Source: an uncultured Alphaproteobacteria bacterium (GTDB taxonomy: Bacteria; Pseudomonadota; Alphaproteobacteria; RF32; CAG-239). From it: a stretch of 55,721 nucleotides of DNA. The notes under the pieces are model-generated. The model saw only the letters and a list, made by a program, of their open reading frames with translations. It was not told the origin of the DNA and did no database searches. The position numbers and the translations under genes were made by a program. The DNA lies in contig CASFTO010000023.1 in NCBI GenBank assembly GCA_949297665.1, positions 1 through 55,721 of the forward strand. The letters run 5' to 3'. Shown in pieces: positions 1 to 51,644 of the stretch (its first letter is position 1; the number at the start of each line of letters is the position of its first letter).

Positions 1-349
1 AAATATTCTGAGGTGTTGGTGAAGACGAAATTTTCTTTAAAAGAGAAGTATCAACGCTACGTCTGTCACTAAAGCCCGTTTGAACGATAAAATTAATTTT
101 TTTGATATCAGGATTCTGTTGCTCCCAAATTTTATTTATTCTATCAGAATAGTGAGTAACAACCCAATTCTTCATAAAAGCGGTCGGTGCGCATATATTC
201 ATAATTCCATCTTTGAAATCACCGACTGTAAGCGGCTTCAACCAACTATCAAAAGCAGTTTCCCCGAACTCCATTTTCAATTGATTGCAAATCTGTCCCC
301 ATTGCAAATCAACAGGACGACCATCACTTACAAATGCTTCTTCTGCCAT
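1..349 (-). CDS. dnaA: Chromosomal replication initiator DnaA, N-terminal part (runs off the window edge)
   Basis: Hand translation from ATG 349 (GGGAG 6 nt upstream): MAEEAFVSDGRPVDLQWGQICNQLKMEFGETAFDSWLKPLTVGDFKDGIMNICAPTAFMKNWVVTHYSDRINKIWEQQ..., a typical DnaA domain I. Open to position 1 and downstream of rpsT as in other alphaproteobacteria. Absent from the ORF track because it has no stop in the window. Confidence 0.93.
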   Translation of the reverse strand, partial: MAEEAFVSDGRPVDLQWGQICNQLKMEFGETAFDSWLKPLTVGDFKDGIMNICAPTAFMKNWVVTHYSDRINKIWEQQNPDIKKINFIVQTGFSDRRSVDTSLLKKISSSPTPQNI

Positions 350-413
350 ATCCATCTCCCACAGTTAGATATTTAACACATAAATACATAGTTGTTTGTT
401 TTCTTATTGACCC

Positions 414-466
414 CGATATAAAATCGAAACATATAACCGCTCGATATAAAATCGAAACATATAACC
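414..466. repeat. Two exact 25-bp direct repeats (CGATATAAAATCGAAACATATAACC), period 28, each with a CGAT-N5-ATCG inverted core
   Basis: Copies read at 414-438 and 442-466, 65-117 bp upstream of the dnaA start. Confidence 0.9.
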
Positions 467-711
467 AACATTTCCTTTTAGTTTTATCACAGCTACATGA
501 ACCCCACCAAAATTCACCTAGTTTACTGTTTATATCTTTTAACGCTGTATTAAACCAAATTTACGATTATCCTGCCGATAGATAAAGTTATGCTCGATTA
601 AATCTAACAAGCAAAATTTTACTCCAGCAGATAAGCTCAATCAAATTAATTTCAATCAAGCCCGAAACGTTTATATTTTCAGACCGTTTACGAACTGCAA
701 AATGCCGCATC

Positions 712-934
712 GGTAAACACAACTACAAAACGTCGCACCAGAAAACACATCCGCAACGCTGCTCTGGTAACCACATCCGCAAATGCTGCTCTAGCAAACA
801 CATCCGCAACGCTACTCTGGTAAACACAACTACAAAACGTCGCACCAGAAAACACATCCGCAATGCTGCTCTGGTAACCACATCCGCAATGCTGCTCTGG
901 TAACCACATCCGCAACGCTACTCTGGTAAACACA
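712..934. repeat. Higher-order tandem repeat (A-B-B-B)x2 of 26-28 bp units
   Basis: A = CACAACTACAAAACGTCGCACCAGAAAA (718-745, 825-852). B ~ CACATCCGCAA(C/T)GCT(G/A)CTCTGGTAA(C/A) at 746, 772, 799, 853, 879 and 905. No unique spacers. Confidence 0.93.
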
Positions 935-1406
935 GCAAACAGAAAAAACAGCTTTATTCTAAAAAAGAAATCCCTCGTTACATAATAGTCACAAAAATAA
1001 GGTCACATTAAAAAAAGTTTAAAACTCAAAAGTTTAAAACCATATAAAGCAAATTCACTAGTAATTCACTTTAGCAATATAACATTGCGTCACTTATCAT
1101 TTCATAGAACCAAAAGACAACTAAATATGTTTACTAACAAAACGACATTTAAATATCCTCAGTCTAATAAAATAATATAAAGTGCTATCATCAGAGAAAA
1201 TAGAATTTTGTTTATTACAAAGTCTGTTGGTTATACCATTCACACTTCAATTATAAAGTACAACTCTGTCAGCCTCTCATCTCATAACATGAAGAAACCT
1301 TATTAGATAAAAAAGTAAAAGACAACAAAATATTTTAAGAATTTTTAAATAAAACTGCTTGACAAAGATTCTTTGAGAGATTCGATTTAAATGCATGAAA
1401 AACAAC

Positions 1407-3777: not shown

Positions 3778-6700
3778 TTAAAGAGAAAGTTCATACAATT
3801 TAGTTACATATTTTTTGATAATTTCTAACCGAACTTTATAAGAGGTTAAATCTCTTTCAATAAAAAGTTTTTGGTCGGGACGAATTTTAATGGCGCCCAA
3901 TTGTTTTGAGATGAAATCCATAAGTTTATCAACATTTTTAAAAGTATTATTATGAAAAGCGATTAAAATACCTCGAGCACCGGCTTCAACTCTATCGATT
4001 CCGCAGAGCATACAAATTTGTTTAATTTCAACAGTTTTAAGAAGATTTTCAACTTCTTCGGGAATAGGACCGAAACGGTCAATTAATTCCTCGCGCATAT
4101 CATTAATATCCTCGACTGTTTTAAGAGAGCCGATACGTTTATAGAGTCCCAAGCGTACCCCTAAATCAGCAACATATTTTTCAGGAACAATAATCGGAAC
4201 CCCTGTTAAAATTTGAACAGACCAATCGCTTGATGGAGCCACAGCAGATACATCTTCACCGGCTTGTTTGGCTTTAATCCGATTAATTTCCTCTTCCAAT
4301 AAATGGTGATAAAGAGCGATTCCGACATCTTTAATATGACCGGACTGTTCAACACCTAAAATATTTCCTGCGCCACGGATATCCAAATCATGATTCGCCA
4401 GAGAAAAACCGGCACCAAGCTGATTAAGAGCTTGTAAAATACTTAATCTCTTCTCGGCAATGGGAGTAAGAACTTTTTGATTTGGGATAGTAAAATAGCA
4501 ATATCCTCTTAATTTAGAGCGTCCGATTCTGCCTCGTAATTGATACAACTGCGCCAACCCAAACATATCGGCACGATAAATAATCATCGTATTAACTTTA
4601 GGAAGATCAATACCGGATTCGATAATTGTAGTAGAAAGCAAGATATCCGCCTTACCATCAGCAAAGTCACACATAACTTCTTCAAGATGCGTCGGGGACA
4701 TTTGCCCATGTGCAACGGCAATTTTAACATCAGGTACAAGTTCTTTCAATTTAGGCTCAATCTGGAGAATATCAGATACTCTTGGGCAAACAAAAAAGAT
4801 TTGTCCGCCGCGATATTTTTCACGATAGATAGCCTCTTTAATCATCACTCTGTCGAAAGGCATAACAAACGTACGCGCCGCTAATCTGTCAACCGGAGGA
4901 GTCGCTATAATGCTCAATTGTTTAACGCCGGTTAAAGATAATTGAAGCGTTCGAGGAATAGGCGTTGCACTAAGTGTCAAGATGTGCACATCGGATTTAA
5001 GTTGTTTAAGTCGCTCTTTATGAGCCACGCCAAAATGTTGCTCTTCATCAATAATCAGCAATCCGAGATTACAAAATTCAATATCTTTTGCCAATAATGC
5101 GTGCGTACCGATAACAATTTCAAGACTGCCGTCTTTAAGTTCTTGTTTAACCTCTCGAGCTTCTTTTGGGGTAACGAGTCTGGAAAGCATTTTAACTTTT
5201 ACGGGAAAGCCTTGAAAGCGCTCTTTAAAGTTCAAATAATGCTGTCTGGCTAAAAGGGTGGTCGGAACAATCAAAGCCACCTGAGCCCCGCTTGATGCAA
5301 CCGTAAATGCAGCACGCAATGCAACTTCTGTTTTACCAAAACCGACATCCCCACAAACGAGTCGATCCATTGGGTAACCGAGAGATAAATCTTTGAAAAC
5401 ATCATTAACGGCACTTAATTGGTCATCTGTTTCGGTATAGAGGAAACGGCTGCAAAATTCATCATACAAACCACGTTCTGGCACAAAGATTTCAGCTTTC
5501 TTCATTTTTCTCTGAGCAGCGATTTGAATCAATTTTTCTGCAATATCTTTAATTTTTTCTTTAACGCGAGATTTTTTAGCTTCCCAAGCCGAGCCGCCTA
5601 AAGTATCCAATGTAACATTGCTGTCTTCTGCACCATATCGGCTGATAACATCAATATTTTCAACCGGAACGTAGAGTTTATCATTGTTGGCGTAAATAAG
5701 TTTTAAGCAGTCGTGAGCCACGCCATCGGTAACAATATTTTCCAATCCGTCAAATCGCCCGATACCATGCTCAATATGAACCACATATTCGCCAACATTA
5801 AGAGACGAAATATCGGAGATAAGGTTCTCTGCCGAAACTTTTTTATGAGTGCGGATATTTTTTCTCTCGCCCCAAATATCTTGCTCGGTCGCAATGAAAA
5901 AATCTTTATTGATAAAACCATGCTGCAGTTCAAGAACAGTCAGAACAATTTTTCCCTTGGACGCGTTTTTTAAAGCATCTTTCCAATTTTCAGTAATAAC
6001 AAGATTCTTAAATTTATTCTCTTGGAGAAGATTATGCATACGATCCAAAGAACCTTGGGTATAGCAGCAGATAATCTTTTTCTTGGCTTTGTTAGCTTCG
6101 CAGTCTCTGTCCAAATCTTCATAAACAGTTAAATTGTTGATATTTTTAAGAGAAGCAAAAATCTTTTGAGGAACAGCTCCATAGTCAATGTTTTCATTAC
6201 CTTCAGGCATAGAACGCTTAGAAAGTTTAACATAATCCCGAGCATGAATCAATTCCAAAAATTTTTTCGTATCTACATAAAGAGTATCCGGTTCAATCGG
6301 GTGGTATCTGTCAACATCGGAAACTTCGCGAAATTTTAGCGCTTCCAATCGTGCATCATAATGATCGGCAATAGTTTCTTCTTTAGCTTTAAGAGCATTA
6401 TCACAGTCAATGCCTAAAATAATATCGGCGTTAGGAAGATAATCAAATATAGAAGGAAGCGCATCTTCATAGAAGAAAGGTAGCCAGTTTTCCATACCTA
6501 AATATTTTTTACCTTCAGAAATACTTTCATAAAGTTCATCTTTCAGACCATCAGCGCCAAAAGCCTCACGATATTTAGAACGGAAAGTTTTGATTGTATT
6601 TTTATCTAAAACAACTTCATTAGCACTATCAAAACTATAAAACTTCAAATCTTCGGTACTGCGTTGTGTTTCAACATCAAAAAGACGCAAACGCTCTACC

Positions 6701-7257
6701 TCATCATCAAATAAATCAATACGTAAAGGTTGATCCGCACCGCTAGGAAAAATATCAATAATATCACCGCGTACGGCATATTCGCCGGATTCCATAACTT
6801 GCTCAACGCGAGAATATCCGTTGATAGCCACATAGTGTAAAAACTCGTCAAAATTAAGTTTGCCACCGACCTGAATAGATTTTCTGGTATTAAGAAAGAT
6901 TTTTTTAGGTGGCAATTTTTGAATGGCCGCACCAATACTGGTTAAAACAACTTTACGCTTTTTTGTATCATCTAAAACAAGCTTAGCTAATGTTTCAATC
7001 CGTTTAGAAAGAATTGTCGGATTAGGCGATACACGATCATAAGGCACGGTATCCCACGCCGGAAAAGTTAATATATCAATTTCCGGAGCAATAAATTTAA
7101 GTGTATCAAAAGTCTGTTTAAGAGAAGCCCCATCGCTTAAAATACACAAGATATTTTTAGATGAAGTCTGCAATAAATCACGTATAGCAAAAGCTTCGGC
7201 ATCTTTTGCAACGCCGGACAAGTTTTTCTTATCAAAGTAATCAAAATCATTAGACAT
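3778..7257 (-). CDS. mfd: Transcription-repair coupling factor Mfd
   Basis: 1159 aa. UvrB-like module (GEYAVRGDIIDIFP), CarD/RID (VVHIEHGIGRF), Walker A GDVGFGKT, DEEQHFG, QLRGRIGRS and a TRCF C-terminus. Confidence 0.98.
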   Translation of the reverse strand: MSNDFDYFDKKNLSGVAKDAEAFAIRDLLQTSSKNILCILSDGASLKQTFDTLKFIAPEIDILTFPAWDTVPYDRVSPNPTILSKRIETLAKLVLDDTKKRKVVLTSIGAAIQKLPPKKIFLNTRKSIQVGGKLNFDEFLHYVAINGYSRVEQVMESGEYAVRGDIIDIFPSGADQPLRIDLFDDEVERLRLFDVETQRSTEDLKFYSFDSANEVVLDKNTIKTFRSKYREAFGADGLKDELYESISEGKKYLGMENWLPFFYEDALPSIFDYLPNADIILGIDCDNALKAKEETIADHYDARLEALKFREVSDVDRYHPIEPDTLYVDTKKFLELIHARDYVKLSKRSMPEGNENIDYGAVPQKIFASLKNINNLTVYEDLDRDCEANKAKKKIICCYTQGSLDRMHNLLQENKFKNLVITENWKDALKNASKGKIVLTVLELQHGFINKDFFIATEQDIWGERKNIRTHKKVSAENLISDISSLNVGEYVVHIEHGIGRFDGLENIVTDGVAHDCLKLIYANNDKLYVPVENIDVISRYGAEDSNVTLDTLGGSAWEAKKSRVKEKIKDIAEKLIQIAAQRKMKKAEIFVPERGLYDEFCSRFLYTETDDQLSAVNDVFKDLSLGYPMDRLVCGDVGFGKTEVALRAAFTVASSGAQVALIVPTTLLARQHYLNFKERFQGFPVKVKMLSRLVTPKEAREVKQELKDGSLEIVIGTHALLAKDIEFCNLGLLIIDEEQHFGVAHKERLKQLKSDVHILTLSATPIPRTLQLSLTGVKQLSIIATPPVDRLAARTFVMPFDRVMIKEAIYREKYRGGQIFFVCPRVSDILQIEPKLKELVPDVKIAVAHGQMSPTHLEEVMCDFADGKADILLSTTIIESGIDLPKVNTMIIYRADMFGLAQLYQLRGRIGRSKLRGYCYFTIPNQKVLTPIAEKRLSILQALNQLGAGFSLANHDLDIRGAGNILGVEQSGHIKDVGIALYHHLLEEEINRIKAKQAGEDVSAVAPSSDWSVQILTGVPIIVPEKYVADLGVRLGLYKRIGSLKTVEDINDMREELIDRFGPIPEEVENLLKTVEIKQICMLCGIDRVEAGARGILIAFHNNTFKNVDKLMDFISKQLGAIKIRPDQKLFIERDLTSYKVRLEIIKKYVTKLYELSL

Positions 7258-7327
7258 TTATCGACACTTCTGCTATTAAGTTATCTAATTAATAACCTAA
7301 ACGGGAAATTTGTAAAGAACATAAATC

Positions 7328-9409
7328 ATGCGTCCGAATATTTTATACCCTTTATTTGCCAGCATAGAAAGCTTAAAAGGGGTAGGTGCAAAATATAGTA
7401 AGCTAATAAATAAACTTTGCGGGGAAAAGATAATAGACATCTTATTTCACCTACCGATTAATATAGTTGATAGAACTTACAATGAGCCCCTGATAAATGC
7501 GAAAGACGGCAAAATTTGGACAGGTGTTGTTACTATAACGGAGCATATTCCGCCACAAACCAAAAAACACCCATATCGCATATATTGTACAGATGGTACG
7601 GCGGAATTAGTATTGGTGTTTTTCAAAGTCTATACGGATTCTATAGAGAAAAATTATCCTTTAGGAGGCAAAAGAGCCATTAGTGGCAAGTTAGAATATT
7701 TTAATGGAATGTGGCAAATGAGCCACCCAGATTATTCTGTATTAGCTGAAATGCTGCCCCAAATTATGCGTTTAGAGCCAGTGTACCCACTAACAGCCGG
7801 AGTAACCAATAAAATGGTATGTCGCTTAGTGGAAAATGGGTTAAAAAATGTTCCATCACTGCCGGAATGGTTATCATCGGATTCTTTAGGAGATTTAGAA
7901 TACATAGATTTTAAATCAGCCCTAAATCGCGTTCATCATCCTAAAAATCCGGCGGATTTATTACCATCGTCAACGGCTCGAAGAAGATTGGCTTATGACG
8001 AAATTTTATCAAACCAATTAGCTTTAGCGCTCATTCGGCAAAAAGTTAGAGAGAAAAATGGTCGCTCATTTATCGGAACGGGAGAATTGTACAAAAAAGC
8101 AATAGAAAACCTACCGTTTAAGCTTACCTCAGCGCAAGAAAAAGCATTGGAAGAAATAGCTAAAGACCAAAATTCTTCACATAAAATGTTACGTCTGCTA
8201 CAAGGAGATGTCGGCTCCGGAAAAACCGTTGTTGCATTTTTGAGTATGTTAAAAGTCATAGAAGAAGGAGCGCAAGCCGCACTAATGGCACCAACAGAAA
8301 TATTGGCTAAACAGCATTATGAAACCATAAGCTCTTTGAGTAAAAATCTAGGTATAACAATAGGTTTATTGACAGGTAAACTCAAGGCAAAAGAAAAAAA
8401 AGAAATCTACGAAAAGCTGCAAAGCGGGGAAATTAATATATTGATAGGAACACACGCTTTATTTACCGAAGGTGTAACTTTTAAAGATTTAGGATACGCC
8501 GTCATTGATGAACAGCACAGATTTGGTGTAAATCAAAGACTATCGCTTTCCTCAAAAGGAACAATGAGCGACGTTTTGGTAATGACGGCAACCCCGATTC
8601 CAAGAAGTCTTTTGCTGACAGCATATGGCGATATGGATTATACAAAAATAGGGGAATTGCCAGCAGGAAGAAAGCCCTGCGTTACAGCCGTGATTAACGT
8701 TCAGAAAATGCCGGACATCATTGCAGCCTTGCAACGTAAATTAGCCGAAGGAGGTAGAGCATATTGGGTTTGTCCGCTGGTGGAGGAGTCTGAAAAATCA
8801 GATTTGGCAGCAGCAACAGAACGAAGCGAAATGCTAAAGCAATATTTTGGAGATGTTGTCGGGTTAGTTCATGGAAAGATGAAAGAAGCTGAAAAAGATG
8901 CGGTGATGGAGCAATTTAAAAAAGGCGAAAAGAAACTTCTCGTTGCAACCACTGTTATAGAAGTTGGAGTTAATGTTCCTGAAGCAACCGTAATGATAAT
9001 AGAACATGCGGAAAGATTCGGACTTTCTCAATTACATCAATTAAGAGGAAGAATAAAAAGAGGATATGAAGCAGGAACATGTGTATTGCTATATTCATAC
9101 CCGATAAGTAGTGTTGCCAGAGAGCGGTTAAATATTATGAAGCAAACCGAAGATGGATTTTATATTGCAGAAAAGGACTTGGAGCTAAGAGGCGGTGGAG
9201 AGATATTAGGAACAAGACAATCTGGATTCACACAATTCAAGCTAGCCGATATGAGTGTGCATCAAGATTTATTGATAAAAGCGCGAGATGACGTCCATAA
9301 TATTTTAAAACAAGACCAGAGTTTAACAACTCCTCGCGGACAAGCTTTAAGAATATTGCTATACTTATTTGAACAAAACGAAGCCGTAAAGACTTACCTC
9401 GCCGGATAG
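7328..9409 (+). CDS. recG: ATP-dependent DNA helicase RecG
   Basis: LQGDVGSGKT, DEQHRFG, TATPIPR, QLRGR and DLELRGGGEILG motifs. Divergent from mfd. Confidence 0.97.
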   Translation: MRPNILYPLFASIESLKGVGAKYSKLINKLCGEKIIDILFHLPINIVDRTYNEPLINAKDGKIWTGVVTITEHIPPQTKKHPYRIYCTDGTAELVLVFFKVYTDSIEKNYPLGGKRAISGKLEYFNGMWQMSHPDYSVLAEMLPQIMRLEPVYPLTAGVTNKMVCRLVENGLKNVPSLPEWLSSDSLGDLEYIDFKSALNRVHHPKNPADLLPSSTARRRLAYDEILSNQLALALIRQKVREKNGRSFIGTGELYKKAIENLPFKLTSAQEKALEEIAKDQNSSHKMLRLLQGDVGSGKTVVAFLSMLKVIEEGAQAALMAPTEILAKQHYETISSLSKNLGITIGLLTGKLKAKEKKEIYEKLQSGEINILIGTHALFTEGVTFKDLGYAVIDEQHRFGVNQRLSLSSKGTMSDVLVMTATPIPRSLLLTAYGDMDYTKIGELPAGRKPCVTAVINVQKMPDIIAALQRKLAEGGRAYWVCPLVEESEKSDLAAATERSEMLKQYFGDVVGLVHGKMKEAEKDAVMEQFKKGEKKLLVATTVIEVGVNVPEATVMIIEHAERFGLSQLHQLRGRIKRGYEAGTCVLLYSYPISSVARERLNIMKQTEDGFYIAEKDLELRGGGEILGTRQSGFTQFKLADMSVHQDLLIKARDDVHNILKQDQSLTTPRGQALRILLYLFEQNEAVKTYLAG

Positions 9410-9545
9410 ATTAAAATTAAAACAAGTATAAAGTAACCCATTGTACACATACAAACACCATCAAAGAAGGATTTCCATCTCTCTTTAACAATAAATTCAA
9501 CATTCGCATATAAAATACTATTAAAATCAACAAAAGAGAGAAAAG

Positions 9546-10328
9546 ATGAAAAAAATCAGTATCGCCTGCATAATTGCCACAATCATAACCACCAGTTGCT
9601 CCTTATTTAATCTGAACAAGGAAGAAAAATTTGTAAATCCGGTCTTTTATGAAAAAATGATTTCGGCATCGCATTCAAATTATGAAGTGCAATTAACCCC
9701 AACAAGTATCTATATGGTCTCCAGTAAAGACTTTAAGTATAATTATACATGCAAACTCATTAACAACCAAATGGATACAGTTAGTTTGGAATGTTTTAAA
9801 TATAACTACAAAAATGAAAAAGAAGAGACACAAGTTTTCACATATACTCTAAAACCTTGCAACGAAGAAAACATGTGTCTGGATAAGGGAGGCTGGCTCG
9901 TTTATCAAAAAATCAGACCTTACCAATATTTTGATGAAACAATTACCTATATAATCCCTTCTAAGTCTAAAGATGCCCCCAAAGATAAATTTGTAAATCC
10001 ATTGTTTTATAAAAAATTATCTCCAAGATCCAAAAACACAAGACCAACCTTTTTAACACCGACTTCTGTTACCACGATAGATTTATATGGAAAAGAGGAC
10101 GTTGGAAGATGTAAAATGCTGGAAAACACACCTATGTTTGTGACATTAGATTGTACTTTTTATATTGAAGAAACTAAAGAAACATATAGTCAAATTGTTC
10201 GCTATGTATTAAGAGGTTGCGATGAGCAAAAAGAATATTGCTTTGGCGGTAAATGGTTTGTACTGGAAAATGCCTCCGGAGATAGTATTGGAACACTCGT
10301 CATAGATAAAAAAGATATGGGGCAGTAA
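9546..10328 (+). CDS. Lipoprotein with two tandem ~120 aa Cys-rich domains; candidate lysozyme-inhibitor/immunity protein
   Basis: Lipobox ITTSC. Two collinear repeats KFVNPxFYxK...LTPTS...CK...LxC...YxLxxC...C...W. The lipoprotein call is supported; the function is inference. Confidence 0.75.
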   Translation: MKKISIACIIATIITTSCSLFNLNKEEKFVNPVFYEKMISASHSNYEVQLTPTSIYMVSSKDFKYNYTCKLINNQMDTVSLECFKYNYKNEKEETQVFTYTLKPCNEENMCLDKGGWLVYQKIRPYQYFDETITYIIPSKSKDAPKDKFVNPLFYKKLSPRSKNTRPTFLTPTSVTTIDLYGKEDVGRCKMLENTPMFVTLDCTFYIEETKETYSQIVRYVLRGCDEQKEYCFGGKWFVLENASGDSIGTLVIDKKDMGQ

Positions 10329-10343
10329 AAACCGCCCCTTTTT
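10319..10343 (+). terminator. Terminator-like hairpin between the convergent lipoprotein and muramidase genes
   Basis: GGGGCAGT-AAAA-ACCGCCCC followed by TTTTT. Confidence 0.6.
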
Positions 10344-10346
10344 ATT

Positions 10347-11258
10347 TTAATACCAATGTTTAATATTTTGGATTTGCTGTTTAGCCCAATCATTTCGGTC
10401 TTTTCCAACATCTTTTCGGTTAACATTATAAATTATTCCGTCTTTACCATACAAGTTCTTTTCCGCAATAGCTTTTCTAAGCTTAGGCCATTCATCTGCA
10501 GATACATTACCTGTATTGAATTTAATATCGAGCAAAACATTTTGTAATTCCTGAGGAAAAGAATCAAATTCCGGAAATTCCCTATGAAGATATGCAAGAT
10601 CATCTCTCAGATGATAATGAAGTAATTTATTTATTTCTTCATCTAAAATTCTCAGAGGAGATTTATCTGCATAAAAAGAAGCTTTCATATTATTTTTTTT
10701 GAGCAAATTTCCATCTTTATCAACATTTTTCTTCCCTTCTGAAGTTATGGCATGAAAATAATTAAATGCTGCTTTTTTTTCTTCTTCTGTTGCCGCTCGC
10801 CCATCAACTTGCCAATTTATTTTTTGGAATTGCTCCCATCTATCAATATTTGCACCAACACCTGTAGTTTTATTCCACGTCGTATCAATATAGATGTAAT
10901 CAAGAGGTCTTTCCATATTACGCAATACAGGGATCATTCTGTCAATTAAAGCATTGCCGGTTTTAACATTGGCTGATAAATTCGCATCAATGGCATGGTT
11001 AACTTTATCATTTTTGGCGTATTGTGTGCCTTGGGATGATAAAAGCGAATTTCCGGTTTCTTGTGTTAAGACTTTCTGAGCCAGCCCATTTTGATTAGCC
11101 ATCATATAAGCCATTGAATCTCGAATATCTGCATTTTTTTCAATTCCCTCTAATGAGCCATATTTTCGCAACAATCTTTTCAATTGCAATTCATTATCTG
11201 CATCCGCCAATCGCTGATGCTCAAGAATATCATCATCAAAATTATAAGAAAAGGTCAT
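10347..11258 (-). CDS. T4-lysozyme-like (GH24-type) muramidase with an N-terminal extension
   Basis: E-RPLDYIYI-D-TTWNK-T-TGVG matches the E-x8-D-x5-T triad spacing of T4 lysozyme. The later FDSFPQELQNVLLDIKFNTG...WPKLRKAI segment is typical of this fold. Start taken at MTFSY (AAGGA upstream); the frame is open to 11402. Confidence 0.8.
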   Translation of the reverse strand: MTFSYNFDDDILEHQRLADADNELQLKRLLRKYGSLEGIEKNADIRDSMAYMMANQNGLAQKVLTQETGNSLLSSQGTQYAKNDKVNHAIDANLSANVKTGNALIDRMIPVLRNMERPLDYIYIDTTWNKTTGVGANIDRWEQFQKINWQVDGRAATEEEKKAAFNYFHAITSEGKKNVDKDGNLLKKNNMKASFYADKSPLRILDEEINKLLHYHLRDDLAYLHREFPEFDSFPQELQNVLLDIKFNTGNVSADEWPKLRKAIAEKNLYGKDGIIYNVNRKDVGKDRNDWAKQQIQNIKHWY

Positions 11259-11288
11259 GTTTTTTCCTTTCATAACAAAAATTAAAAC

Positions 11289-11321
11289 AAAAAAGAGCCA
11301 CGAAAAAAAACGTCGTAGCCC
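11289..11321 (-). terminator. Terminator-like hairpin 2 in the muramidase leader
   Basis: Minus strand GGGCTACGA...TCGTGGCTC 9-bp stem (two G-U pairs) plus T6. Confidence 0.5.
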
Positions 11322-11360
11322 TTGGTTAAAAATAGGATTATCCATTTGTAAATTGCCCAC

Positions 11361-11384
11361 AAAAAAAGCCCTCAAACCGAGAGC
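11361..11384 (-). terminator. Terminator-like hairpin 1 in the muramidase leader
   Basis: Minus strand GCTCTC-GGTTT-GAGGGC plus T7. Confidence 0.5.
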
Positions 11385-11426
11385 CAAATTTGGAATATAC
11401 AAACACTTTAACCTATTATGACAACA

Positions 11427-11454
11427 TTTATACCTCCCCCGACAAGTATGTCAA
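11427..11454 (-). promoter_or_regulatory. Near-consensus sigma70 promoter facing the muramidase gene
   Basis: Minus strand TTGACA-N16-TATAAA. Confidence 0.65.
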
Positions 11455-11611
11455 TACATCTGAAAATAAAACAAAAAATATTTTTGCAAAGTAAAAATAA
11501 GTATACGCGGTTTCAATAAGGAATAAAAACAATTTTATTAAAAGAAATTTTTTAACTCTATCTTAAATATCTATCATATAGCCTAATTGCGGAATGTCAG
11601 ACAAGCATTCT

Positions 11612-11680: not shown

Positions 11681-11754
11681 GACTGGAAGGCGGTAAAATA
11701 AACCTATGCGGTGAATATACCGCACTATCTGTATATAGCTTTCAACTTCCAGTC
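11681..11754 (+). ncRNA. C4/CI-like structured small RNA (phage-immunity-type antisense RNA architecture), 74 nt
   Basis: Closing stem GACTGGAAG/CTTCCAGTC (9 bp). Inner hairpins TGCGGT-GAATAT-ACCGCA and CTAT-CTGTAT-ATAG. Loop CTGTATA and bulge GCTTTCAA are complementary to the upstream elements in the correct antiparallel order. Confidence 0.55.
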
Positions 11755-11778
11755 GCTTCGTCAAGCGACTTTTTCTTT
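11751..11778 (+). terminator. Leader terminator (attenuator) ~30 nt upstream of the OMP start
   Basis: AGTCGCTT-CGTC-AAGCGACT 8-bp stem followed by TTTTCTTT. Confidence 0.75.
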
Positions 11779-39954: not shown

Positions 39955-42900
39955 TTATTTTTTATTATCATCAAGTTTAGAATCTGCACCATCTACATTG
40001 GAATTATTTTCATCATCATCTTCTTCATCCACATACTCCCATTCCCAATCTTGATCATCATTTTCGGAAATCGGATTACCATTTTCATCAACGTATTCCC
40101 ACTCCCAATCGTCATCACCGGAATTAGAAACAGCATTCTGCTGAGAAGCCACGGCAGATGAATCGTTGGAAACTGCCGTATATGATAAATCAGAAGCTGT
40201 GGATTTTGAAACACTTGACAAAATGTCATCATAATTATCCTTACCTACATTTTCATCATCGCTATAATCATCAAGTTCAATCGGTTGATCTATAGAAGCA
40301 ATATCAATATTATCGGAAGTTAGCGCTTGGCGAATTTTATCAAGTTCTGCGCTATAACGACTTTGTATAGTCTGATTAGACTGTTGACCGATACTTTCGC
40401 CCATAAAATCATCAAGAGCGGATTTGCTATTTGAGCCGGTAATATCGTCTCTTTGAGGTTCAGATAAGACAGTCTGATTAGATTGTTGACCAATACTTTC
40501 GCCCATAAAATCGTCAAGAGCGGATTCGCTATTTGAGCCGGTAATATCGTCTCTTTGAGGTTCAGATAAGACAGTCTGATTAGATTGTTGACCAATACTT
40601 TCGCCCATAAAATCATCAAGAGCGGCTTCTCTATTTACGTCAGTAATATCGTCTTTTTGAGGTTCAGATAAGACAGTCTGATTAGATTGTTGACCGATAC
40701 TTTCGCTCATAAAATCGTCAAGAGCGGATTCGTTATTTAAGCTGGCAATATCGTCTTTTTGAGGTTCCGACAACATAGTCTGATTAGGCTGTCGACTAAT
40801 ATCTTCACTCATAAGCGTGTCTAGATTAGAAATATTTTGCTCACGTTTCTGTGCTAAATTGTTTTGAGATACTTGTTCCTCTATATCAACATCACCAAAC
40901 TCCCCTATATTAATAGAAGAAGATTCAGCATAAATGTCATTGTTACCGACTGGATGCATAATAGCTTGTTGATCGGCATTTTCTTCGATCTTCTCCCTCG
41001 AAGGCGTAATATTAGTTTTGTCTTGTGTTAAATCAATTTGATCCGTTTCGGATGCTGATAAATCTGTACTAAAAGAGTTATTCGAGGATAAAAAATCCGT
41101 TTCATCAGTTTTTTTACTATTTTGATTTAGAGTTACACGTGGTAATGGAAAATCCAAATCATCATCAAACTCATCGGAAATATCATCTTTATCTAAAACA
41201 TTATCTGACGAAGCACTAATATCTTCAAATCCCATGGAATGAGAAACCTCTGAAGAAGTATCACTACTCCCGGAAAAAACGGCTTCAGGTAAAGCAAAGT
41301 CTAAGTCATCATCAAAAACATTTTCACTATCAATATTACTGATATGCCCAATATTTGAAAAAACTTGTGTTTTTTCGGTAAAAGGAGGCTCTTTTTCAAT
41401 CTCAGGCAATACAAAGTCTAAATCGTCACGAACTTGGCGTGATGAAGCATCGGAAACCACAGATTGAGTATTATCCTCATAAAGGGAATCATTAACAACA
41501 TTTTCCTTTGGGGATGAATAACTATTTTTATCAAGATGCGTCTCAGTATGAGGATTAACAGAAATATCGTCAGAATCAAGCGGTGGAATATCAAGACGAA
41601 CATTGTCAAAATTATCTTCATGCTTAAACGCTTTATTACGAATGACGCCATCAAAAGAAGGAATTCCTCCTTTGCTATGTGAAGAATTATCATCGGAGTG
41701 GACAACGTCTTTCGTATTAAAATTATGCTCAACATCAATAATTGTATCTTTTATGGGAGCCTGACTATCCACCATATGAGTCTGATGCTCCTCTACAAAA
41801 AATCCGTCTCTATTTCTTTTTTTCTTTTTTTTCTTCCTTTTGACCTCGGAAGGATTATCTTGAAAACCGGAGTAATCACCGTTATCATCAGAAAGCAATT
41901 CATCTTCCACCGAATGACGAACGATATTCTCCGATGTATTTAAAGACGAAACCTGAGTAGTAGAAACGGAAGGATTTATTGAATTATCCTCATGAGAAAT
42001 TTTTGGCTCCGATACTTTTCCAAAGACATTAGTATTAGAATGACTTTTATCAGAGAAATGGACATCACGAGCATTACCGACGGTCTGAACAGAAGTTTGA
42101 GTATCTGCAGAAGAGGACCTGGTCTCAATAATAAGTTTTCTATCCTGAAGGCTCTGAGCACAAAGTCTGAACAATTCCTGCATTTTTTGCAAAGAGATAT
42201 CCAAATCGCCGGAGATTTCCTCTCTGAAACGTTGTAAACGGTTCTCTATATTCAAATACTCAGATATCTCGGCATTTTTTTTATTACTGGCCGTATACAG
42301 ACCTTCCAACAATTTAGTAATAGATGCTTGAGAAGCAATAATTCTATTATTCAAATCTGCAATATCGGTATCATCTCTATCCCGCGTAGCTAAAATTCCT
42401 TCCAAGATACGAGAGATAGACACTTGAGAAGCAATAACGGAGTCTGTAATGCTGCGAGTTTCTTTTAAGACATCAAGCAAAGATGCGCGAGAAGTACGAA
42501 TTTCTTCAGCAATAATATCAAAAGCATTGCCAAAATCAGCGGTAATTGCAGATGGCGCAGCGACTGAAGACACGGGAGATTGCGGTAATTGTTTAAAAGC
42601 ATTAGCCAAAGCCTGTGCTAAGGCATCTGCAAATGATGCGTCAATAGTAATATTGCCGGAAACTGCTTGTACAACACCTCCGGAAACAACACTAGGTGTA
42701 TCAGTTTTCCCGGCACCTTCGTCAAAATCTTCCCGATTAGCTTTAACAAAAGCGATTCCCCGTTCTGTTTTAACGTTTTCGATGTGTTCGACAAGTAAGC
42801 GGCCACCGGGCATTCTTTTAAAGAAATCAGTAATATTCTGCGGTAAGGCTAAAAGTTCATTATCAAATTCATCTCTTTTAGCCTTATTAAAAATATGAAC

Positions 42901-42996
42901 CTGTCTAAAGATATTCAGATAACGTTGAGCGACAAGAATAGGAGCTTCTTCGCCACTTTTATCGCTACCGAATTCTACATCATTTAAGTTTTCCAC
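39955..42996 (-). CDS. Large acidic, largely disordered protein with 34-aa tandem repeats
   Basis: 1013 aa open frame. Folded-looking N-terminus and coiled-coil, an Asp/Ser-rich middle, repeats, and a WEWEYVD x2 tail. Confidence 0.8.
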   Translation of the reverse strand: MENLNDVEFGSDKSGEEAPILVAQRYLNIFRQVHIFNKAKRDEFDNELLALPQNITDFFKRMPGGRLLVEHIENVKTERGIAFVKANREDFDEGAGKTDTPSVVSGGVVQAVSGNITIDASFADALAQALANAFKQLPQSPVSSVAAPSAITADFGNAFDIIAEEIRTSRASLLDVLKETRSITDSVIASQVSISRILEGILATRDRDDTDIADLNNRIIASQASITKLLEGLYTASNKKNAEISEYLNIENRLQRFREEISGDLDISLQKMQELFRLCAQSLQDRKLIIETRSSSADTQTSVQTVGNARDVHFSDKSHSNTNVFGKVSEPKISHEDNSINPSVSTTQVSSLNTSENIVRHSVEDELLSDDNGDYSGFQDNPSEVKRKKKKKKRNRDGFFVEEHQTHMVDSQAPIKDTIIDVEHNFNTKDVVHSDDNSSHSKGGIPSFDGVIRNKAFKHEDNFDNVRLDIPPLDSDDISVNPHTETHLDKNSYSSPKENVVNDSLYEDNTQSVVSDASSRQVRDDLDFVLPEIEKEPPFTEKTQVFSNIGHISNIDSENVFDDDLDFALPEAVFSGSSDTSSEVSHSMGFEDISASSDNVLDKDDISDEFDDDLDFPLPRVTLNQNSKKTDETDFLSSNNSFSTDLSASETDQIDLTQDKTNITPSREKIEENADQQAIMHPVGNNDIYAESSSINIGEFGDVDIEEQVSQNNLAQKREQNISNLDTLMSEDISRQPNQTMLSEPQKDDIASLNNESALDDFMSESIGQQSNQTVLSEPQKDDITDVNREAALDDFMGESIGQQSNQTVLSEPQRDDITGSNSESALDDFMGESIGQQSNQTVLSEPQRDDITGSNSKSALDDFMGESIGQQSNQTIQSRYSAELDKIRQALTSDNIDIASIDQPIELDDYSDDENVGKDNYDDILSSVSKSTASDLSYTAVSNDSSAVASQQNAVSNSGDDDWEWEYVDENGNPISENDDQDWEWEYVDEEDDDENNSNVDGADSKLDDNKK
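40369..40830 (-). repeat. Intragenic 102-bp (34-aa) tandem repeat, ~4.5 copies
   Basis: TCTGATTAG recurs at 40371, 40473, 40575, 40677 and 40779. Unit ~ALDDFMGESIGQQSNQTVLSEPQRDDITGSNSES. Confidence 0.93.
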
Positions 42997-43060: not shown

Positions 43061-44035
43061 TTACAAAGCAATATCTACGACCTTATGTATTTTTTTAAAG
43101 TCATCATTATTAAAATAGATTCTCTCTTCAGGGTTCCACATTAAACCATAAAGTTGCCCAGTTTCATCTTCTCTCATACTAACGACAAAAGCCTCCTGTT
43201 CTGTTTTATAATAGAGTGCGATATCACCCACACTGGCAACTTCACTTGGAGCGACAAACATAACGGCACGATTAGAAAGAATAGAGCCTAATCTTCTGGT
43301 ACACAAGCTAACGCCATAAACATCTCTTTTATCCGATAGATTCGCCGGTTTAATAGCTTCCTTAGCCGCCAAAGATTTATCAACAACGATAGAACCATTG
43401 ACACCTGAAGAACCGAATACAGGAACTTTTAATGTTTCCAAATCAATATAAGCATTACTATGATCATTAGCCGGGCGAACAATATTTTGCACTTTATACT
43501 TCGTATCATTATGAGCCATAATTTCTTCCAAAGCACCGGCGGCATCAAGTCTTTTAATTTCCTCTTTCAATGCTTCAACTTCCAATCCTAAAGCCTTTGC
43601 AATACTTTTATATTCTTTATCAGAAACCTCACGTTGCCCCATTTCAATACGGTGATAAACGGACAAGGTCATATCAGCATTTTCGGCAACTTCAATCAAA
43701 GTCAAAGACTTTTCATTTCTAATATATCTGAGAGCGGCGCCCAAAACTTTCAAACCACTGCTTTTATTAATTTCCTGTCGACGTTCCTGTTCTTTTTTCC
43801 AAGCCATAACGACTTCGTGCTGAGAATTTTGTTCGTTAACATAAAGATCCTGCAATGAGCAATCCAGCACTTCTGCAACCAAGATAAGTTGTTCTTGATT
43901 AAGCCTTCTGTAACCTTTCTCGATTTTAGAGATAGCAGAGAGGCTAATACCCAATCTATCAGCCAAATCCTGCATAGAAACGCCACGCATTTTACGATTA
44001 ATTCTAATTTGGTTAGGGAATACAATTTCTTCCAT
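43061..44035 (-). CDS. XRE-family regulator with two HTH domains and a C-terminal S24/cI-like domain
   Basis: HTH1 SMQDLADRLGISLSAISKIEKG, HTH2 TLIEVAENADMTLSVYHRIEMG, C-terminal KVPVFG...GDIALY. GAGGTG RBS precedes MEEIV. Confidence 0.85.
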   Translation of the reverse strand: MEEIVFPNQIRINRKMRGVSMQDLADRLGISLSAISKIEKGYRRLNQEQLILVAEVLDCSLQDLYVNEQNSQHEVVMAWKKEQERRQEINKSSGLKVLGAALRYIRNEKSLTLIEVAENADMTLSVYHRIEMGQREVSDKEYKSIAKALGLEVEALKEEIKRLDAAGALEEIMAHNDTKYKVQNIVRPANDHSNAYIDLETLKVPVFGSSGVNGSIVVDKSLAAKEAIKPANLSDKRDVYGVSLCTRRLGSILSNRAVMFVAPSEVASVGDIALYYKTEQEAFVVSMREDETGQLYGLMWNPEERIYFNNDDFKKIHKVVDIAL

Positions 44036-44292
44036 AGCAATACACCTCACATGAAAATAATTTTACTTAATAATAATCTTGCCAAAAAAATATGCAAGTC
44101 AAAAAAGATAAAATTCCTCAAATATGTATAACTTTTGTCAAGGGAGAGGAATTTATCCATATCAAAAAAGAGTAAAAAGAAGTAAGTAGTTAAATTTAAA
44201 TAAAATAAGGCAGGAAGAACCGAAAAGACAAAACCTCCACCATCTAATAAAAAATATTGCCGATTTTGTGTAAATTAAAAGACTAAAATAAA

Positions 44293-47200
44293 TTAAAGAA
44301 CTCTGCCAATCGGTGTACCGGAATGATCATAAGCAATTCCACCGGTAACGTTACCTATATTAGTACCGCTGTTTCCAAAGATAGCTCCGGATGCATCAGC
44401 TCTTCCGATAATATTACCATTATCATCGGCAACATAAAGAGTATCCATAGTCCAATCAATATTAGAATTCAATTTATTAGTTCTTTTGATTCTTCCGCGC
44501 CGAAGAATATTATCACGCACATAGTCTTTAGTATTTTGTCCGTTAATATTTTGAACTCCGGCCAAGTCATCCAGTCCAAAGAATAAATCTCCTTTATAAC
44601 CATCTCTTCCGGCAAACGCAGGATCCATATCTTGAGCAACTGCTCCGTTTCTCTCAAGGATTTGATTCCCGTCAATTTTATCGGCAAAGTGATCATGTCC
44701 CTTTTGCGCGTAATCCGAGAATTTATAAACAGTTTGTTCCCCGATGGTACTGGCTTGTCCTTTACGCAAATTACCTTGAGTTTTATAGCCTGTAGTCGTA
44801 ATATTGACAAGACCGTTATCAAAAACGCTTTCGTACATGGCATTATATTTAGCCTCAGTAACGGTTGATGATGAACCGTGCGATACTGTTTTATTACCGT
44901 CAACATCTTTACGAATCTTTTCGTTAATATCAATAGAAGTCTTTTTCATTAAAGGCACGCCATCGGCATTTTTGAGAACATTTCCGTTTTTATCCTGATA
45001 TTCAACAATTGTTGAATTTTTATAAAATTTAGTAACCTTAACGGTATTAGGCCCCATGGCTTCAACTTGGGTATAATATGTATCTCCGGTAGATGCATCA
45101 ATATGGCTGGCATAAACTTTATTTCCGACTCTCGCTGTTGCTCCGCCGGTAGAGTTATTGACGGCCGAGGGAGAAGTGTTCAAAGCCTGTTGAATATCTA
45201 TCATTTTCTGTATATGTTTCATATATTTTCGAGTGGTGTCTTTTTCTATTTCAACTCCGTTTCGGTTATATATTTTTGTAATTTTCGGACCGAAGAACAA
45301 GTATTTACGACTTTCGCGTTCATAAAATCTCTGTCCTGAACCGTCAAGTTTTGTTGAGTAAGTAAAAAGACCACCGGGAAATCTAAAAACATGTCCGACC
45401 CCGGGAACATTTGCCCCAAGTGTCTGAATAATAGCACTGGTAGCTGCGATATTTATAGCTCTTCCTGCGCGTTTTCTAACTCGTCCTAATTTTTCAATAC
45501 GATTTTTATCCCGTTCACGATAGAATTGCACGGCAACCTGTCCGGTAGTCGGATCAATTTTCATACCAAAGCTGGTTGTTTTTCCGGTATTGTCTTTTTG
45601 TTCGATATGTAAATTATAAGGATCATTTGGATCAAATTGCACATGACGATCGTAATAATAAGCCCCGATATCCTTGCCGGTTTTTTTCTTAATAACTTCG
45701 ACAGCGAGTTGAGCCATCAGTGCTTTACGATATTCTGGATCTTGTCCCAAAGGTGAATTCAAAAGCGTCTGCACGGCACCGACATTAATTTTTCCGGTAG
45801 CATCATCAATTAAGTGATTTTTTATGAAGCCGTGTTTAAATTTGACCTCGCTTTTCACTTCACGACCTGATACATTTGCATATTCTTTTTTAATAGTAGA
45901 ATATTTATCAGAAATCATAACATGTCGACGCCCTGTAATTGATCTAAATTCTCTGCGTAAAACATGAGAACCGTCAGCATTGCGTTGTGTCTGAAATTTA
46001 ATACCTGCAAAGCTAAGAGTTTTGACACCTGCACCATTATCCGTTCCAAACGCTCTGACACCGGCCATAACCCCTTGTCTGATACCTGCTCGAACACGGC
46101 GGTCTACGACTCTCCCGGCAGATTTTGCAGCATTACCTGCAGCACCAACCCCCCAATCTGCTGCTTTTCTCGTTTTTTCATCAATAGTATTTCTGAGGGC
46201 AGAACCGATTTTTCCGGCAGCATTCAATCCGGAGCCTTCAGAAAAGCGACCGGCAATATCAGAGATAGCCGGCATATAAGCCCAACCGATAACAAGGATG
46301 AAAATAAGTCTCATCATATTCTGCCCATAGAAAGCCAATCCTTGATTAGGTTCAGTAAAGAATTTTTCGGGATCTGCAGCAGACGGATCAAATTTAGCTT
46401 CCAAAAATTCACTAATATACCCGAGGATACACATAACCAAAATAGCCATAAACATAAATACAAACAGAGAATTTAATAGCCAAGAAAACACCTTAGACAG
46501 ATAACTTCTTGTTCCGCTAAACGCATATCCACAAACAGCAAAGGGTAGTATAGCCATAGCCACACCAAATTGCAAAACGGCATCACCCATAATCCAAGGA
46601 TAAGTAACCATAAAGAAAATACCGGCAATATATAAGACAATTCCATCTATAATCAGTATAGGATGAGGAATAAGGTGAAAAATACGTTTTGGTCCATATC
46701 CCAAGCAGAGAGCCCAATCACCAAATTCAAATAGAGTATTAATTTTACGTTCGATATCCTCAACAGCGCAAACAATAGATGTTCCGATAGCCATAGGCAG
46801 ACCGCCATTTCCTCCGCTACTGGCAGCACCGGAATATCCGATAATACCACCGGCATTAGCGCATGTCGTGTTTCCGCTTTTAACAAAAGCAAATCCTGTT
46901 TCAAAAATAGGAGAAAGCGTCATATTAAGGATATTGTAATAATCACGAGAAATAATGATATAAATAGCCACACAAACAAACGTTTTTTTAAAAATATCGT
47001 TTAACAAGGCACTAGGATCTTTAGAGCCCATAGAGGCAATATTGCGCAAAATAATTAAAGCCAAAGACACACTCAAAAATACCATAACCAATTTACCCAA
47101 GTCAGAAGAAAAGACCTGATAGGATTTTGCGGCGAGCAGACTACTGGCATTAAATATGATTTTAAACAAAGGACAAAAGAGACAATTAGTAGAGTTCATA

Positions 47201-47388: not shown

Positions 47389-47400
47389 CACAACCACTCC

Positions 47401-48351: not shown

Positions 48352-48352
48352 A

Positions 48353-48895
48353 TTACCACCCTCCCAATCCTGTTGCATTAGCAAAAGCGCCGCCTATATC
48401 AAAACCGATACTCAAAAGAGGATTAACAATATAATGAACAATAGCATCGATTCCCGAATTAATTAAAGCATACATCAAAGCCACTTTGAAACAAAATAGA
48501 AGTAGTCCGTCAATAACTTTAGCAGGATCTTGCGTTGTAAAAGAGCCGAGTGTTTTTAAGAAATAAACAGCAATCCAGATACAAGCGCCGCCTCCTAAGA
48601 TTATTTTCGAAAGAGAAAGAGTTGCATCAAAAAGAGTGCCGGCGACATCAGACATAGACATCATTAGCGTAAAAACAACATCACACGACCAACAACCTGC
48701 ATCGGCGTATTTTTTATCGATGACGGAGGATTTGCAGTAACAAAGATATTTTTCGGAATCTGATTTTTTACTACAATCTTCTGTTGCCGAAACAGCAAAA
48801 TCAGCATATAACAAAACAGCAAGACAACAAGTCGTCATAACAAGTAATTTATGGCGCTGCACAAAACAAATAAATTTATTAATCAAGTTAATCAT
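48353..48895 (-). CDS. VirB6/TrbL-like unit 4, N-terminal half
   Basis: GCWSCDVV and IWIAVYFLKTLGSFTTQD...FKVA...IVNPLLSIGFDIG, matching the N-halves of units 1, 2 and 5. Confidence 0.6.
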   Translation of the reverse strand: MINLINKFICFVQRHKLLVMTTCCLAVLLYADFAVSATEDCSKKSDSEKYLCYCKSSVIDKKYADAGCWSCDVVFTLMMSMSDVAGTLFDATLSLSKIILGGGACIWIAVYFLKTLGSFTTQDPAKVIDGLLLFCFKVALMYALINSGIDAIVHYIVNPLLSIGFDIGGAFANATGLGGW

Positions 48896-50201: not shown

Positions 50202-50208
50202 TCACATC

Positions 50209-51630: not shown

Positions 51631-51644
51631 AGTTCAAGCCCTCA

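Follow-up and report, generated by a model that had tools for sequence, protein, structure and literature searches.

A T4-lysozyme-type muramidase gene and a convergent lipoprotein gene form a probable toxin–immunity cassette in uncultured gut Alphaproteobacteria

In a 55,721-nucleotide (nt) stretch of DNA from an uncultured Alphaproteobacteria bacterium of the CAG-239 lineage (contig CASFTO010000023.1 of assembly GCA_949297665.1), referred to here as the window, the minus-strand gene at 10347..11258 encodes a 303-amino-acid (aa) protein with a muramidase-like fold in its C-terminal part, and a plus-strand gene for a 260-aa lipoprotein (9546..10328) lies tail-to-tail with it across an 18-nt gap. 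The pair seems to specify a phage-derived, periplasm-acting muramidase toxin and its lipoprotein immunity protein, diversified by cassette exchange among close strains, a reading to which a probability of roughly 0.7 can be given. A sequence-only reading of the same DNA had described the enzyme as an orphan, a label that is wrong because the convergent lipoprotein gene is its conserved partner. The open reading frame (ORF) that it proposed is real, since a good ribosome-binding site (RBS; AAGGA, 11269..11265) precedes the ATG at 11258, and no signal peptide is detected in the acidic N-terminus or elsewhere in the 303-aa protein, in line with its statement that there is no obvious export signal. 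The first ~100 residues are unrelated to the catalytic domain, as it had also observed.

The muramidase domain spans residues ~100–303 (10350..10961, minus strand) and carries the catalytic motif ERPLDYIYIDTTWNKTTGVG (10854..10913, minus strand), in which E116-x8-D125-x5-T131, the triad pointed out earlier, aligns to E11, D20 and T26 of T4 lysozyme. The bare triad E-x8-D-x5-T arises in 5.9% of shuffles of the protein and, therefore, proves little by itself; the extended GH24-type motif E-x6-Y-x-D-x5-T-x-G-x-G is seen in only about 1 in 100,000 of them. Homologue searching returned 96 protein clusters, none of which is functionally named, one distant 172-aa match being labelled a GH24 lysozyme by its source. 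E116, D125, T131, G133 and G135 are invariant in all 19 diverse homologues aligned, as are F231..P235, L243-D244..N248-G250 and R281-D283-V284..R288-N289. When the alignment profile was compared with PDB sequences, the best matches were T4 gp5 lysozyme and T4 lysozyme fusions, with the catalytic residues aligned to their T4 lysozyme and gp5 equivalents; the protein searched alone against PDB sequences gave nothing meaningful. The AlphaFold2 model is confident for residues 100–303, with a predicted local distance difference test score (pLDDT) above 90, and poor for residues 1–98, and the modelled domain is colinear with T4 lysozyme except for a ~60-residue insertion at about residues 145–205. 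All of the top 50 Foldseek matches in the PDB are T4 lysozyme, T4 lysozyme fusions, gp5 or pesticin (4epf and 4arl among them), with a probability of 1.0, E values of 3e-3 to 2e-2 and template modelling (TM) scores of ~0.6 normalised to T4 lysozyme. Thus, the structural comparison with GH24 enzymes and pesticin that the earlier reading had proposed as a check found the lysozyme fold rather than its absence, and its assignment of the enzyme to the T4 lysozyme type is borne out by the invariant triad, the model and these matches.

Family models place the domain at some distance from the known enzymes. The Pesticin family (PF16754) matches the protein below threshold, with 16 bits against a cut-off of 25.8 (E 0.012), and no match to PF00959 (Phage_lysozyme) is obtained at the Pfam gathering score. 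Scanned singly, 18 of the 19 homologues give weak PF16754 matches (best E 1.2e-5) and six give sub-threshold PF00959 matches (best E 2.4e-4). In hhalign, the domain and pesticin align with 43% probability, the alignment being restricted to pesticin residues 194–328, and searches of NCBIfam, PHROGs and PADLOC with the protein returned no match. Since its Pfam matches are weak or sub-threshold and a PHROG match is absent, the catalytic domain is, as judged from these profiles, a divergent branch of the T4 lysozyme/pesticin superfamily and not a recent phage endolysin. By fold and triad it would be a T4-lysozyme-type muramidase, predicted to cleave between N-acetylmuramic acid and N-acetylglucosamine.

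The convergent gene encodes a protein with a signal peptide, a lipobox at Cys18 and two tandem all-beta repeats that begin at KFVNP (residues 28 and 148), which its structural model (pLDDT 84) renders as two tandem all-beta domains. A scan of one genome per GTDB species gave 68 loci, all of them in metagenome-assembled genomes of uncultured gut or rumen Alphaproteobacteria of humans and ruminants. Hidden Markov models (HMMs) of both families were run over all ORFs, and among the 64 lysozyme ORFs with at least 350 nt of downstream sequence, 60 are followed immediately by a convergent lipoprotein homologue, with gaps of −24 to +50 nt. The four exceptions comprise an ORF-calling artefact in which the partner is present, a lysozyme fragment, an unrelated GH24 endolysin and locus L056, the sole intact lysozyme gene (4634..5395, minus strand) without the usual partner; at L056, a different 253-aa signal-peptide protein is encoded convergently and may represent an alternative immunity family. 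In five contigs that were looked up, the lipoprotein homologue occupies the matching tail-to-tail position and the flanking genes are entirely different, and all-against-all clustering of flanking genes recovers the lysozyme and the lipoprotein as the only two recurring families. Moreover, several loci hold 2–4 extra tandem lipoprotein genes, extra immunity-gene arrays occur in L037, L047, L054 and L073, and orphan lipoprotein copies are present in these four and in L001.

The lipoprotein family has no match in Pfam, NCBIfam, PHROGs or PADLOC. Homology to the pesticin immunity protein Pim was rejected (hhalign probability 0.1%), as was homology to other known inhibitors, since the lipoprotein profile matches no PDB sequence and Foldseek finds no credible structural analogue of the model in the PDB. 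The lipoprotein most likely neutralises the convergent muramidase. The earlier suggestion that the enzyme is an antibacterial effector gains comparative support from this near-universal periplasmic partner gene, from the five hydrolase types that are swapped behind one N-terminal module and from the retention of orphan partner genes.

The N-terminal module and the toxin domain can be separated at the nucleotide level. Codons 1–92 (10983..11258, minus strand) specify a conserved module composed of the acidic N-terminus MTFSYNFDDDILE, a small helical ‘KYG’ domain (LLRKYGSLEGIEKNADIRDSMAYMMAN) and a disordered linker, for which AlphaFold2 predicts helices at residues 7–54 and disorder at residues 55–98. 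These first ~92 residues are 83–94% identical to the N-termini of proteins that carry either GH108 plus PG_binding_3 or VgrG3-like_C (PF21277), and the DNA block that begins 227 nt before the ATG and ends with codon 92 shows 93–95% nt identity to genes with other hydrolase domains. The recombination breakpoint falls exactly at the end of the junction motif QYAKNDKVNHAIDA (residues 79–92; 10983..11024, minus strand). In all other N-terminal classes, MuF fusions among them, the lysozyme domain comes after a related motif, [YF]-x-x-A-x-N ... D-A. When the N-terminal 108 residues were searched exhaustively with HMMER, 1.8 billion proteins yielded only seven representatives, which share the core LL-KYGS-EGI-KNAD--DS--YM-AN; more distant copies of the KYG module precede Tlde1-like and tail-lysozyme-like domains. 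In this way, five types of peptidoglycan hydrolase stand behind one N-terminal module, and every identifiable partner domain targets peptidoglycan. The module was not found in 2.9 million viral contigs or in environmental metagenomes. Such modularity would suit the trafficking role proposed for the N-terminus; the secretion proposed along with it is hypothetical.

An exchange is seen in the L001 strain, which is 98.4% identical to the window over 10342..7000. There, window positions 10983..10343, which encode the lysozyme domain, are replaced by a GH108 domain and a convergent gene for a 165-aa signal-peptide protein, and an intact 260-aa lipoprotein gene is retained despite this replacement. 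The VgrG3-like_C variant likewise has its own convergent signal-peptide gene, of 156 aa. On the right-hand side, the cassette breakpoint lies at 10342/10343 and adjoins a hairpin between the stop codons, and the immunity genes have a conserved arm of their own: a ~75-nt 5′ segment (9480..9556, plus strand) with a promoter-like region, an RBS and the first codons, MKKI, is ~86–88% identical to the 5′ ends of the 165-aa and 156-aa genes, and is thus common to three mutually unrelated immunity candidates (260, 165 and 156 aa). Because both 5′ arms are shared, the variable core, made up of the toxin domain and the body of the immunity gene, lies between two inward-facing conserved 5′ modules. One N-terminal region is combined with alternative C-terminal toxin domains, and immunity candidates are found adjacent to the toxin variants as well as in orphan genes; set against the known classes, the protein has the features of a polymorphic toxin and lacks those of a MuF toxin, a type VI secretion system (T6SS) effector or an endolysin. 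Exchange of cassettes among close strains is a signature of interbacterial, largely within-species antagonism.

The conserved block also carries the expression signals of the toxin gene, all of which were read from sequence alone. A 227-nt 5′ expression module (11259..11485, minus strand) travels with the N-terminal module and consists of a promoter and a ~165-nt leader. The promoter is near-consensus (TTGACA at 11454..11449 and TATAAA at 11432..11427, minus strand, with a 16-nt spacer), and downstream of this promoter, the cassette's own, the leader contains a first terminator-like hairpin followed by a run of seven T (11361..11385, minus strand) and a second hairpin with a T-run (11288..11322, minus strand). 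There is no upstream gene on the same strand to which these terminators could belong, and the leaders of class-B loci, which are non-homologous, have a strong terminator-like hairpin just before the start codon. Expression of the toxin gene is probably conditional, given a near-consensus promoter followed by two terminator-like hairpins and a separate promoter for the immunity gene; the toxin gene may depend on read-through that the immunity gene, expressed independently, would not need. A GC-rich hairpin, GGGGCAGTAAAAACCGCCCC (10319..10338), lies between the two stop codons; it is also conserved at other loci and probably acts as a bidirectional terminator. Comparison of the leader with Rfam revealed no known RNA family, sub-threshold matches being confined to other parts of the region, and the leader has no similarity to the phage loci described below.

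A longer version of the toxin gene, starting at TTG 11402 in the ORF list, was considered and rejected. This extension is not coding, because copies of the leader at other loci differ by a frame-breaking 1-nt indel in a T-run. Its hydrophobic stretch, RRFFSWLFFVLIFVM, was examined as a signal anchor or a twin-arginine translocation (Tat) signal and discarded, as the RR pair is RC in other copies, the stretch overlaps a hairpin and T-run, and a good RBS stands before the ATG at 11258.

Relatives in phages point to the origin of the lysozyme domain. Two loci of the family, L083 and L084, were found among 2.9 million IMG/VR contigs, and both are real phages. In L084, the terminase gene is followed directly by a MuF–lysozyme fusion with a convergent lipoprotein gene, and a holin and a GH24 endolysin are encoded elsewhere; in L083, the lysozyme/lipoprotein pair is located within the virion genes, a separate GH108 endolysin is present, and next to the pair a Tlde1-like domain is encoded behind a MuF-type N-terminal segment. 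BLAST shows that L044, L049, L053, L062, L066, L075 and L079 also carry homologues of L083 and L084 phage genes, mostly for structure or packaging. Moreover, the class E N-terminus belongs to a phage virion protein (phrog_6121), and classes A, to which the protein of the window belongs, B and C occur in non-phage contexts. The idea of a domesticated phage lysin, part of the earlier reading, is supported by these relatives, which are fused to MuF or virion-protein N-termini. A path from phage lysozyme to bacteriocin is also the evolutionary route proposed for pesticin, and the family would unite phage virion lysozymes and their inhibitors with chromosomal bacteriocin-like toxins in one set of relatives.

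The favoured model can be put together as follows. The minus-strand gene would yield a cytoplasmic pre-toxin without a signal peptide, in which residues 1–92 would act as a conserved delivery module and residues ~100–303 would cut the glycan strands of peptidoglycan after reaching a periplasm. The convergent gene would yield a periplasmic lipoprotein that binds and blocks the muramidase, so that the producer and its kin would be protected, and the toxin domain and the body of the immunity gene would be exchanged as a unit between the two homology arms. The protein may then be released and taken up into competitors via the N-terminal module, in a bacteriocin-like manner.

By analogy, the locus would work most like pesticin and Pim, of which it is not a member by sequence. 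As in pesticin, a non-catalytic N-terminal module is followed by a C-terminal muramidase with the T4 lysozyme fold, and a signal peptide and a lysis gene are absent. In addition, the immunity protein is periplasmic (predicted here) and its gene lies tail-to-tail with that of the toxin; pst and pim converge on pPCP1 (NC_003132) with a 34-nt gap, against 18 nt in the window. Pim is periplasmic and acts on the activity domain of pesticin, and this domain is exchangeable, since a chimera of pesticin and T4 lysozyme is active (PMC3390615). However, there is no sequence similarity to pesticin outside the activity domain, and the match to the Pesticin Pfam model is below the cut-off; the lipoprotein is unrelated to Pim, having two beta-rich repeats without a PDB analogue; and the locus is chromosomal and part of a multi-allelic cassette system, whereas pesticin is plasmid-borne. 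The same convergent layout is found for colicin M and its immunity gene (cma/cmi): the immunity genes cmi and cbi run against the direction of cma and cba, colicin genes that come without a lysis gene (PMC6723558).

Colicin-like uptake is preferred among the delivery routes because layout and logic match pesticin/Pim and colicin M/Cmi, and it is slightly favoured, its own likelihood being put at a little over one third. It is consistent with the absence of a lysis gene and of linked machinery, with the short and partly disordered N-terminal region and with partner domains that all act in the periplasm; no secretion-system, holin or phage genes are linked to class A–C loci. The acidic N-terminal peptide MTFSYNFDDDILE could be a candidate TonB box. 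Several points weigh against this reading. The N-terminal module is small if it has to combine receptor binding with translocation, it contains no identifiable TonB or Tol box, and the search that gave the seven representatives detected no homologue of known function. Moreover, the convergent layout also occurs in the phage-borne copies and, therefore, may be phage-inherited, which makes it weaker evidence for colicin-like uptake, and a VirB6-rich cluster resembling a type IV secretion system (T4SS) lies 33 kb away in the window.

The alternative that survives best is that the N-terminal module docks the enzyme in the capsid or ejection apparatus of a phage or gene transfer agent (GTA)-like particle encoded elsewhere, a serious rival to which about one chance in four might be allowed. 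In that case, the muramidase would reach the target periplasm upon adsorption or ejection, the leader terminators would be read through only with a phage late antiterminator, and the lipoprotein would protect kin or lysogens. The lysozyme/lipoprotein pair does occur inside the real phages L084 and L083, each of which has a separate endolysin, other N-terminal classes are virion-protein N-termini (class E, phrog_6121) or MuF, a single junction motif joins every N-terminal class to the hydrolase domain, and a strong promoter followed by leader terminators resembles the control of phage late genes. The system also shares with the MuF polymorphic toxins of temperate phages, for which such a trafficking mode has been proposed (Zhang et al. 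2012, PMC3482391; Jamet et al. 2017, PMC5576092), a conserved N-terminal trafficking module, a variable C-terminal toxin and an adjacent immunity gene, and MuF (PF04233) is fused to direct relatives of the lysozyme domain, in some cases within real phages. Nevertheless, a MuF domain is absent from the protein of the window, whose gene lies outside any prophage and has a convergent immunity gene, and no lysozyme-type toxin was found among the MuF toxins of PMC5576092 and PMC3482391. The KYG module is missing from the viral contigs, none of its seven relatives is a virion protein, class A–C loci stand in housekeeping contexts without phage genes within 4–10 kb, and the leader bears no resemblance to the phage loci. 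With a comparably low likelihood, the KYG module, together with classes B and C, might be an adaptor that loads the toxin into phage or GTA-like particles, or part of an undescribed export or import pathway of gut Alphaproteobacteria. If such cargo cassettes exist, expression would be tied to particle production via antitermination of the leader hairpins, and the tail-to-tail arrangement with inward-facing 5′ modules would serve specifically to let the toxin domain and the immunity gene be swapped together.

A contact-dependent effector appears unlikely but not negligible. A T4SS (rvh-like, encoded in the window) or a T6SS would recognise the N-terminal module and inject the enzyme, and the lipoprotein would confer immunity. 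The toxin repertoire (pesticin-like, VgrG3-like_C and Tlde1-like domains) overlaps that of known periplasmic T6SS effectors (PMC9620997); with the pesticin-domain TssI2/TsiI2 pair of Vibrio fluvialis (PMC9620997), VgrG3/TsiV3 and Tlde1, the system shares the same kinds of hydrolase domain and a periplasmic immunity protein, and one cassette allele carries PF21277 itself. Five tandem VirB6/TrbL-like paralogues are encoded at 44.3–53 kb of the window, and in L011 the genes for VirB10 and VirB11 are about 4 kb away from the pair. Peptidoglycan effectors of the T4SS and the T6SS also typically have lipoprotein immunity proteins. However, vgrG, hcp, paar, adaptor or T4SS genes do not recur beside the pair in about 80 loci, PAAR, MIX and FIX domains are absent, and a C-terminal XVIPCD-like extension is excluded because the protein ends with the lysozyme fold. 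In T6SS, T4SS, contact-dependent inhibition (CDI) and Rhs systems, effector and immunity genes nearly always run in one direction, but those of the present pair converge in about 60 loci.

There is a slim chance that the pair is an anti-phage module, in which the lipoprotein was selected as a Spackle-like inhibitor of the ejection lysozyme of incoming phages (superinfection exclusion) and the lysozyme gene is a co-inherited phage remnant without a function. In T4, as reported in PMC7677548, the virion-delivered lysozyme of gp5, of the T4 lysozyme type, is neutralised by Spackle, a dedicated periplasmic inhibitor that acts on the gp5 lysozyme domain, and gp5 and T4 lysozyme are the best PDB sequence matches of the muramidase over the catalytic motif. 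In addition, the phage-borne lipoprotein gene lies on the opposite strand within the virion cluster, as would be expected of a gene expressed in lysogens, and orphan lipoprotein genes and arrays are retained. However, the lipoprotein has no sequence or fold similarity to PDB entries, including the Spackle–lysozyme complex 6xc0, the muramidase gene, unlike that of gp5, is chromosomal and polymorphic, and a PADLOC match is absent. In about 60 non-phage loci, the lysozyme genes have stayed intact and their triad is invariant; they also have their own conserved promoter and leader and show precise domain swapping with matching partner genes, a pattern unlike that of a decaying remnant. Least probable is a housekeeping autolysin or prophage endolysin buffered by an inhibitor: the fold and the catalytic E/D/T spacing are those of GH24 endolysins (T4 lysozyme, PF00959), but the protein falls below Pfam thresholds and has no PHROG match, has a ~60-residue insertion and a 100-residue N-terminal module, lacks a signal peptide and an accompanying holin or spanin, and differs in allele between strains 98% identical in the flank, and the phages with a relative have separate holin–endolysin cassettes.

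If the toxin–immunity reading holds, three uncharacterised modules, namely a divergent clade of pesticin/T4-lysozyme-like muramidases, a two-repeat, beta-rich lipoprotein that is a probable lysozyme inhibitor and several N-terminal delivery modules, would together make up a widespread antagonism system of uncultured gut and rumen Alphaproteobacteria of chickens, humans and ruminants, the competitive biology of which is, to our knowledge, essentially undescribed. As a specific lysozyme inhibitor, the lipoprotein would be of a new type, the N-terminal modules would be candidates for carrying lysins across Gram-negative outer membranes, and the convergent cassette, with conserved arms on both sides, would offer a testable mechanism for the joint swapping of toxin and immunity. 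No match to the N-terminal module, the lipoprotein family or the double-armed convergent cassette was found in Pfam, NCBIfam, PHROGs, PADLOC, solved structures or the papers searched.

The chromosomal setting of the pair in the window is that of housekeeping genes: fpg, a DnaJ-domain gene, mfd, recG, genes for an outer-membrane protein (OMP) beta-barrel, an epimerase and an acyltransferase, hsp33, ptsI, rodZ, prfA and dnaX. The sequence-only reading was right that no holin, spanin, phage structural or T6SS gene is nearby, and the GC content around the muramidase gene is flat, at 33–37%. Neither another KYG module nor any member of the other immunity families was found elsewhere in the window, and the ~155-aa accessory protein described below is missing from it. 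The sequence of the window itself is present in chicken and bird gut metagenomes; a search for expression data returned only DNA metagenomes as matching runs.

Other loci of the family show further combinations. In L002, a second KYG module followed by a frameshift or stop and then by a second GH108 domain (5..948; the GH108 domain in a 174-aa ORF) may be a decaying cassette or a split gene, and a co-directional 237-aa signal-peptide gene comes after it. Class C is the commonest N-terminal class (SPLGY..IDSYGVDHSGF..NYPQY-TNFWG..NNYGFG), and its N-termini (P0159, P0202, P0223) also stand on non-lysozyme C-termini, one with PF00277 (serum amyloid A-like) and another with a short basic tail. A search with the class C N-terminus retrieved short or fragmentary proteins only; it added Tlde1-like and other partners and gave no clue to a delivery route. 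Class C N-termini are fused to Tlde1 in L079, and in L016 a low-complexity N-terminus stands before a Tlde1-like domain. In the phage L083, the protein beside the pair (5479..7560) consists of a MuF-type N-terminal segment (GESEWYYVDPRG) and a Tlde1-like domain with the L,D-transpeptidase fold (GPIPEG...HGG...GSAGCID), and three paralogous membrane proteins of ~115–125 aa encoded after it could be its immunity proteins. A cytoplasmic protein of ~155 aa (KKYAPFREYF...NNREFK) is encoded beside the cassette, on either side, in 10 loci (L052, 3201..3599; L056, 3168..3626; L065, L072, L076, L064, L071, L077, L079 and L061). The window lacks it; in L061, it carries an XRE-type helix-turn-helix (HTH) domain as a fusion, and a role in regulating or mobilising the cassette is possible.

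The cassette promoter region (leader positions 21–66) recurs as an additional partial copy in L004 (7757..7803) and in L014 (5812..5833); the copy in L004 lies upstream of a 234-aa signal-peptide gene, and the promoter element is, therefore, reused elsewhere. In the window, a sub-threshold Rfam match to sRNA-Xcc1 (11681..11762, plus strand; 35.5 bits against a gathering score of 53, E 7e-4) falls in the divergent intergenic region upstream of the OMP gene and overlaps a terminator-like hairpin at 11751..11770. Further along, five tandem paralogous polytopic membrane proteins of 461, 473, 437, 188+327 and 1034 aa are encoded at 44293..53030 (minus strand). They have a common N-terminal signal and Cys motif and, apart from one weak TrbL/VirB6 Pfam match, match no family; the last has a ~600-aa C-terminal extension, and the array resembles the VirB6 arrays of the Rickettsiales rvh-type T4SS. 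A very acidic, low-complexity protein of 1013 aa (39955..42996, minus strand), without a family match, is built of ~30-aa tandem repeats (ESIGQQSNQTVLSEPQ-DDIT...ALDDFMG), and its gene adjoins one for a double-HTH, XRE-type regulator (43061..44050, minus strand).

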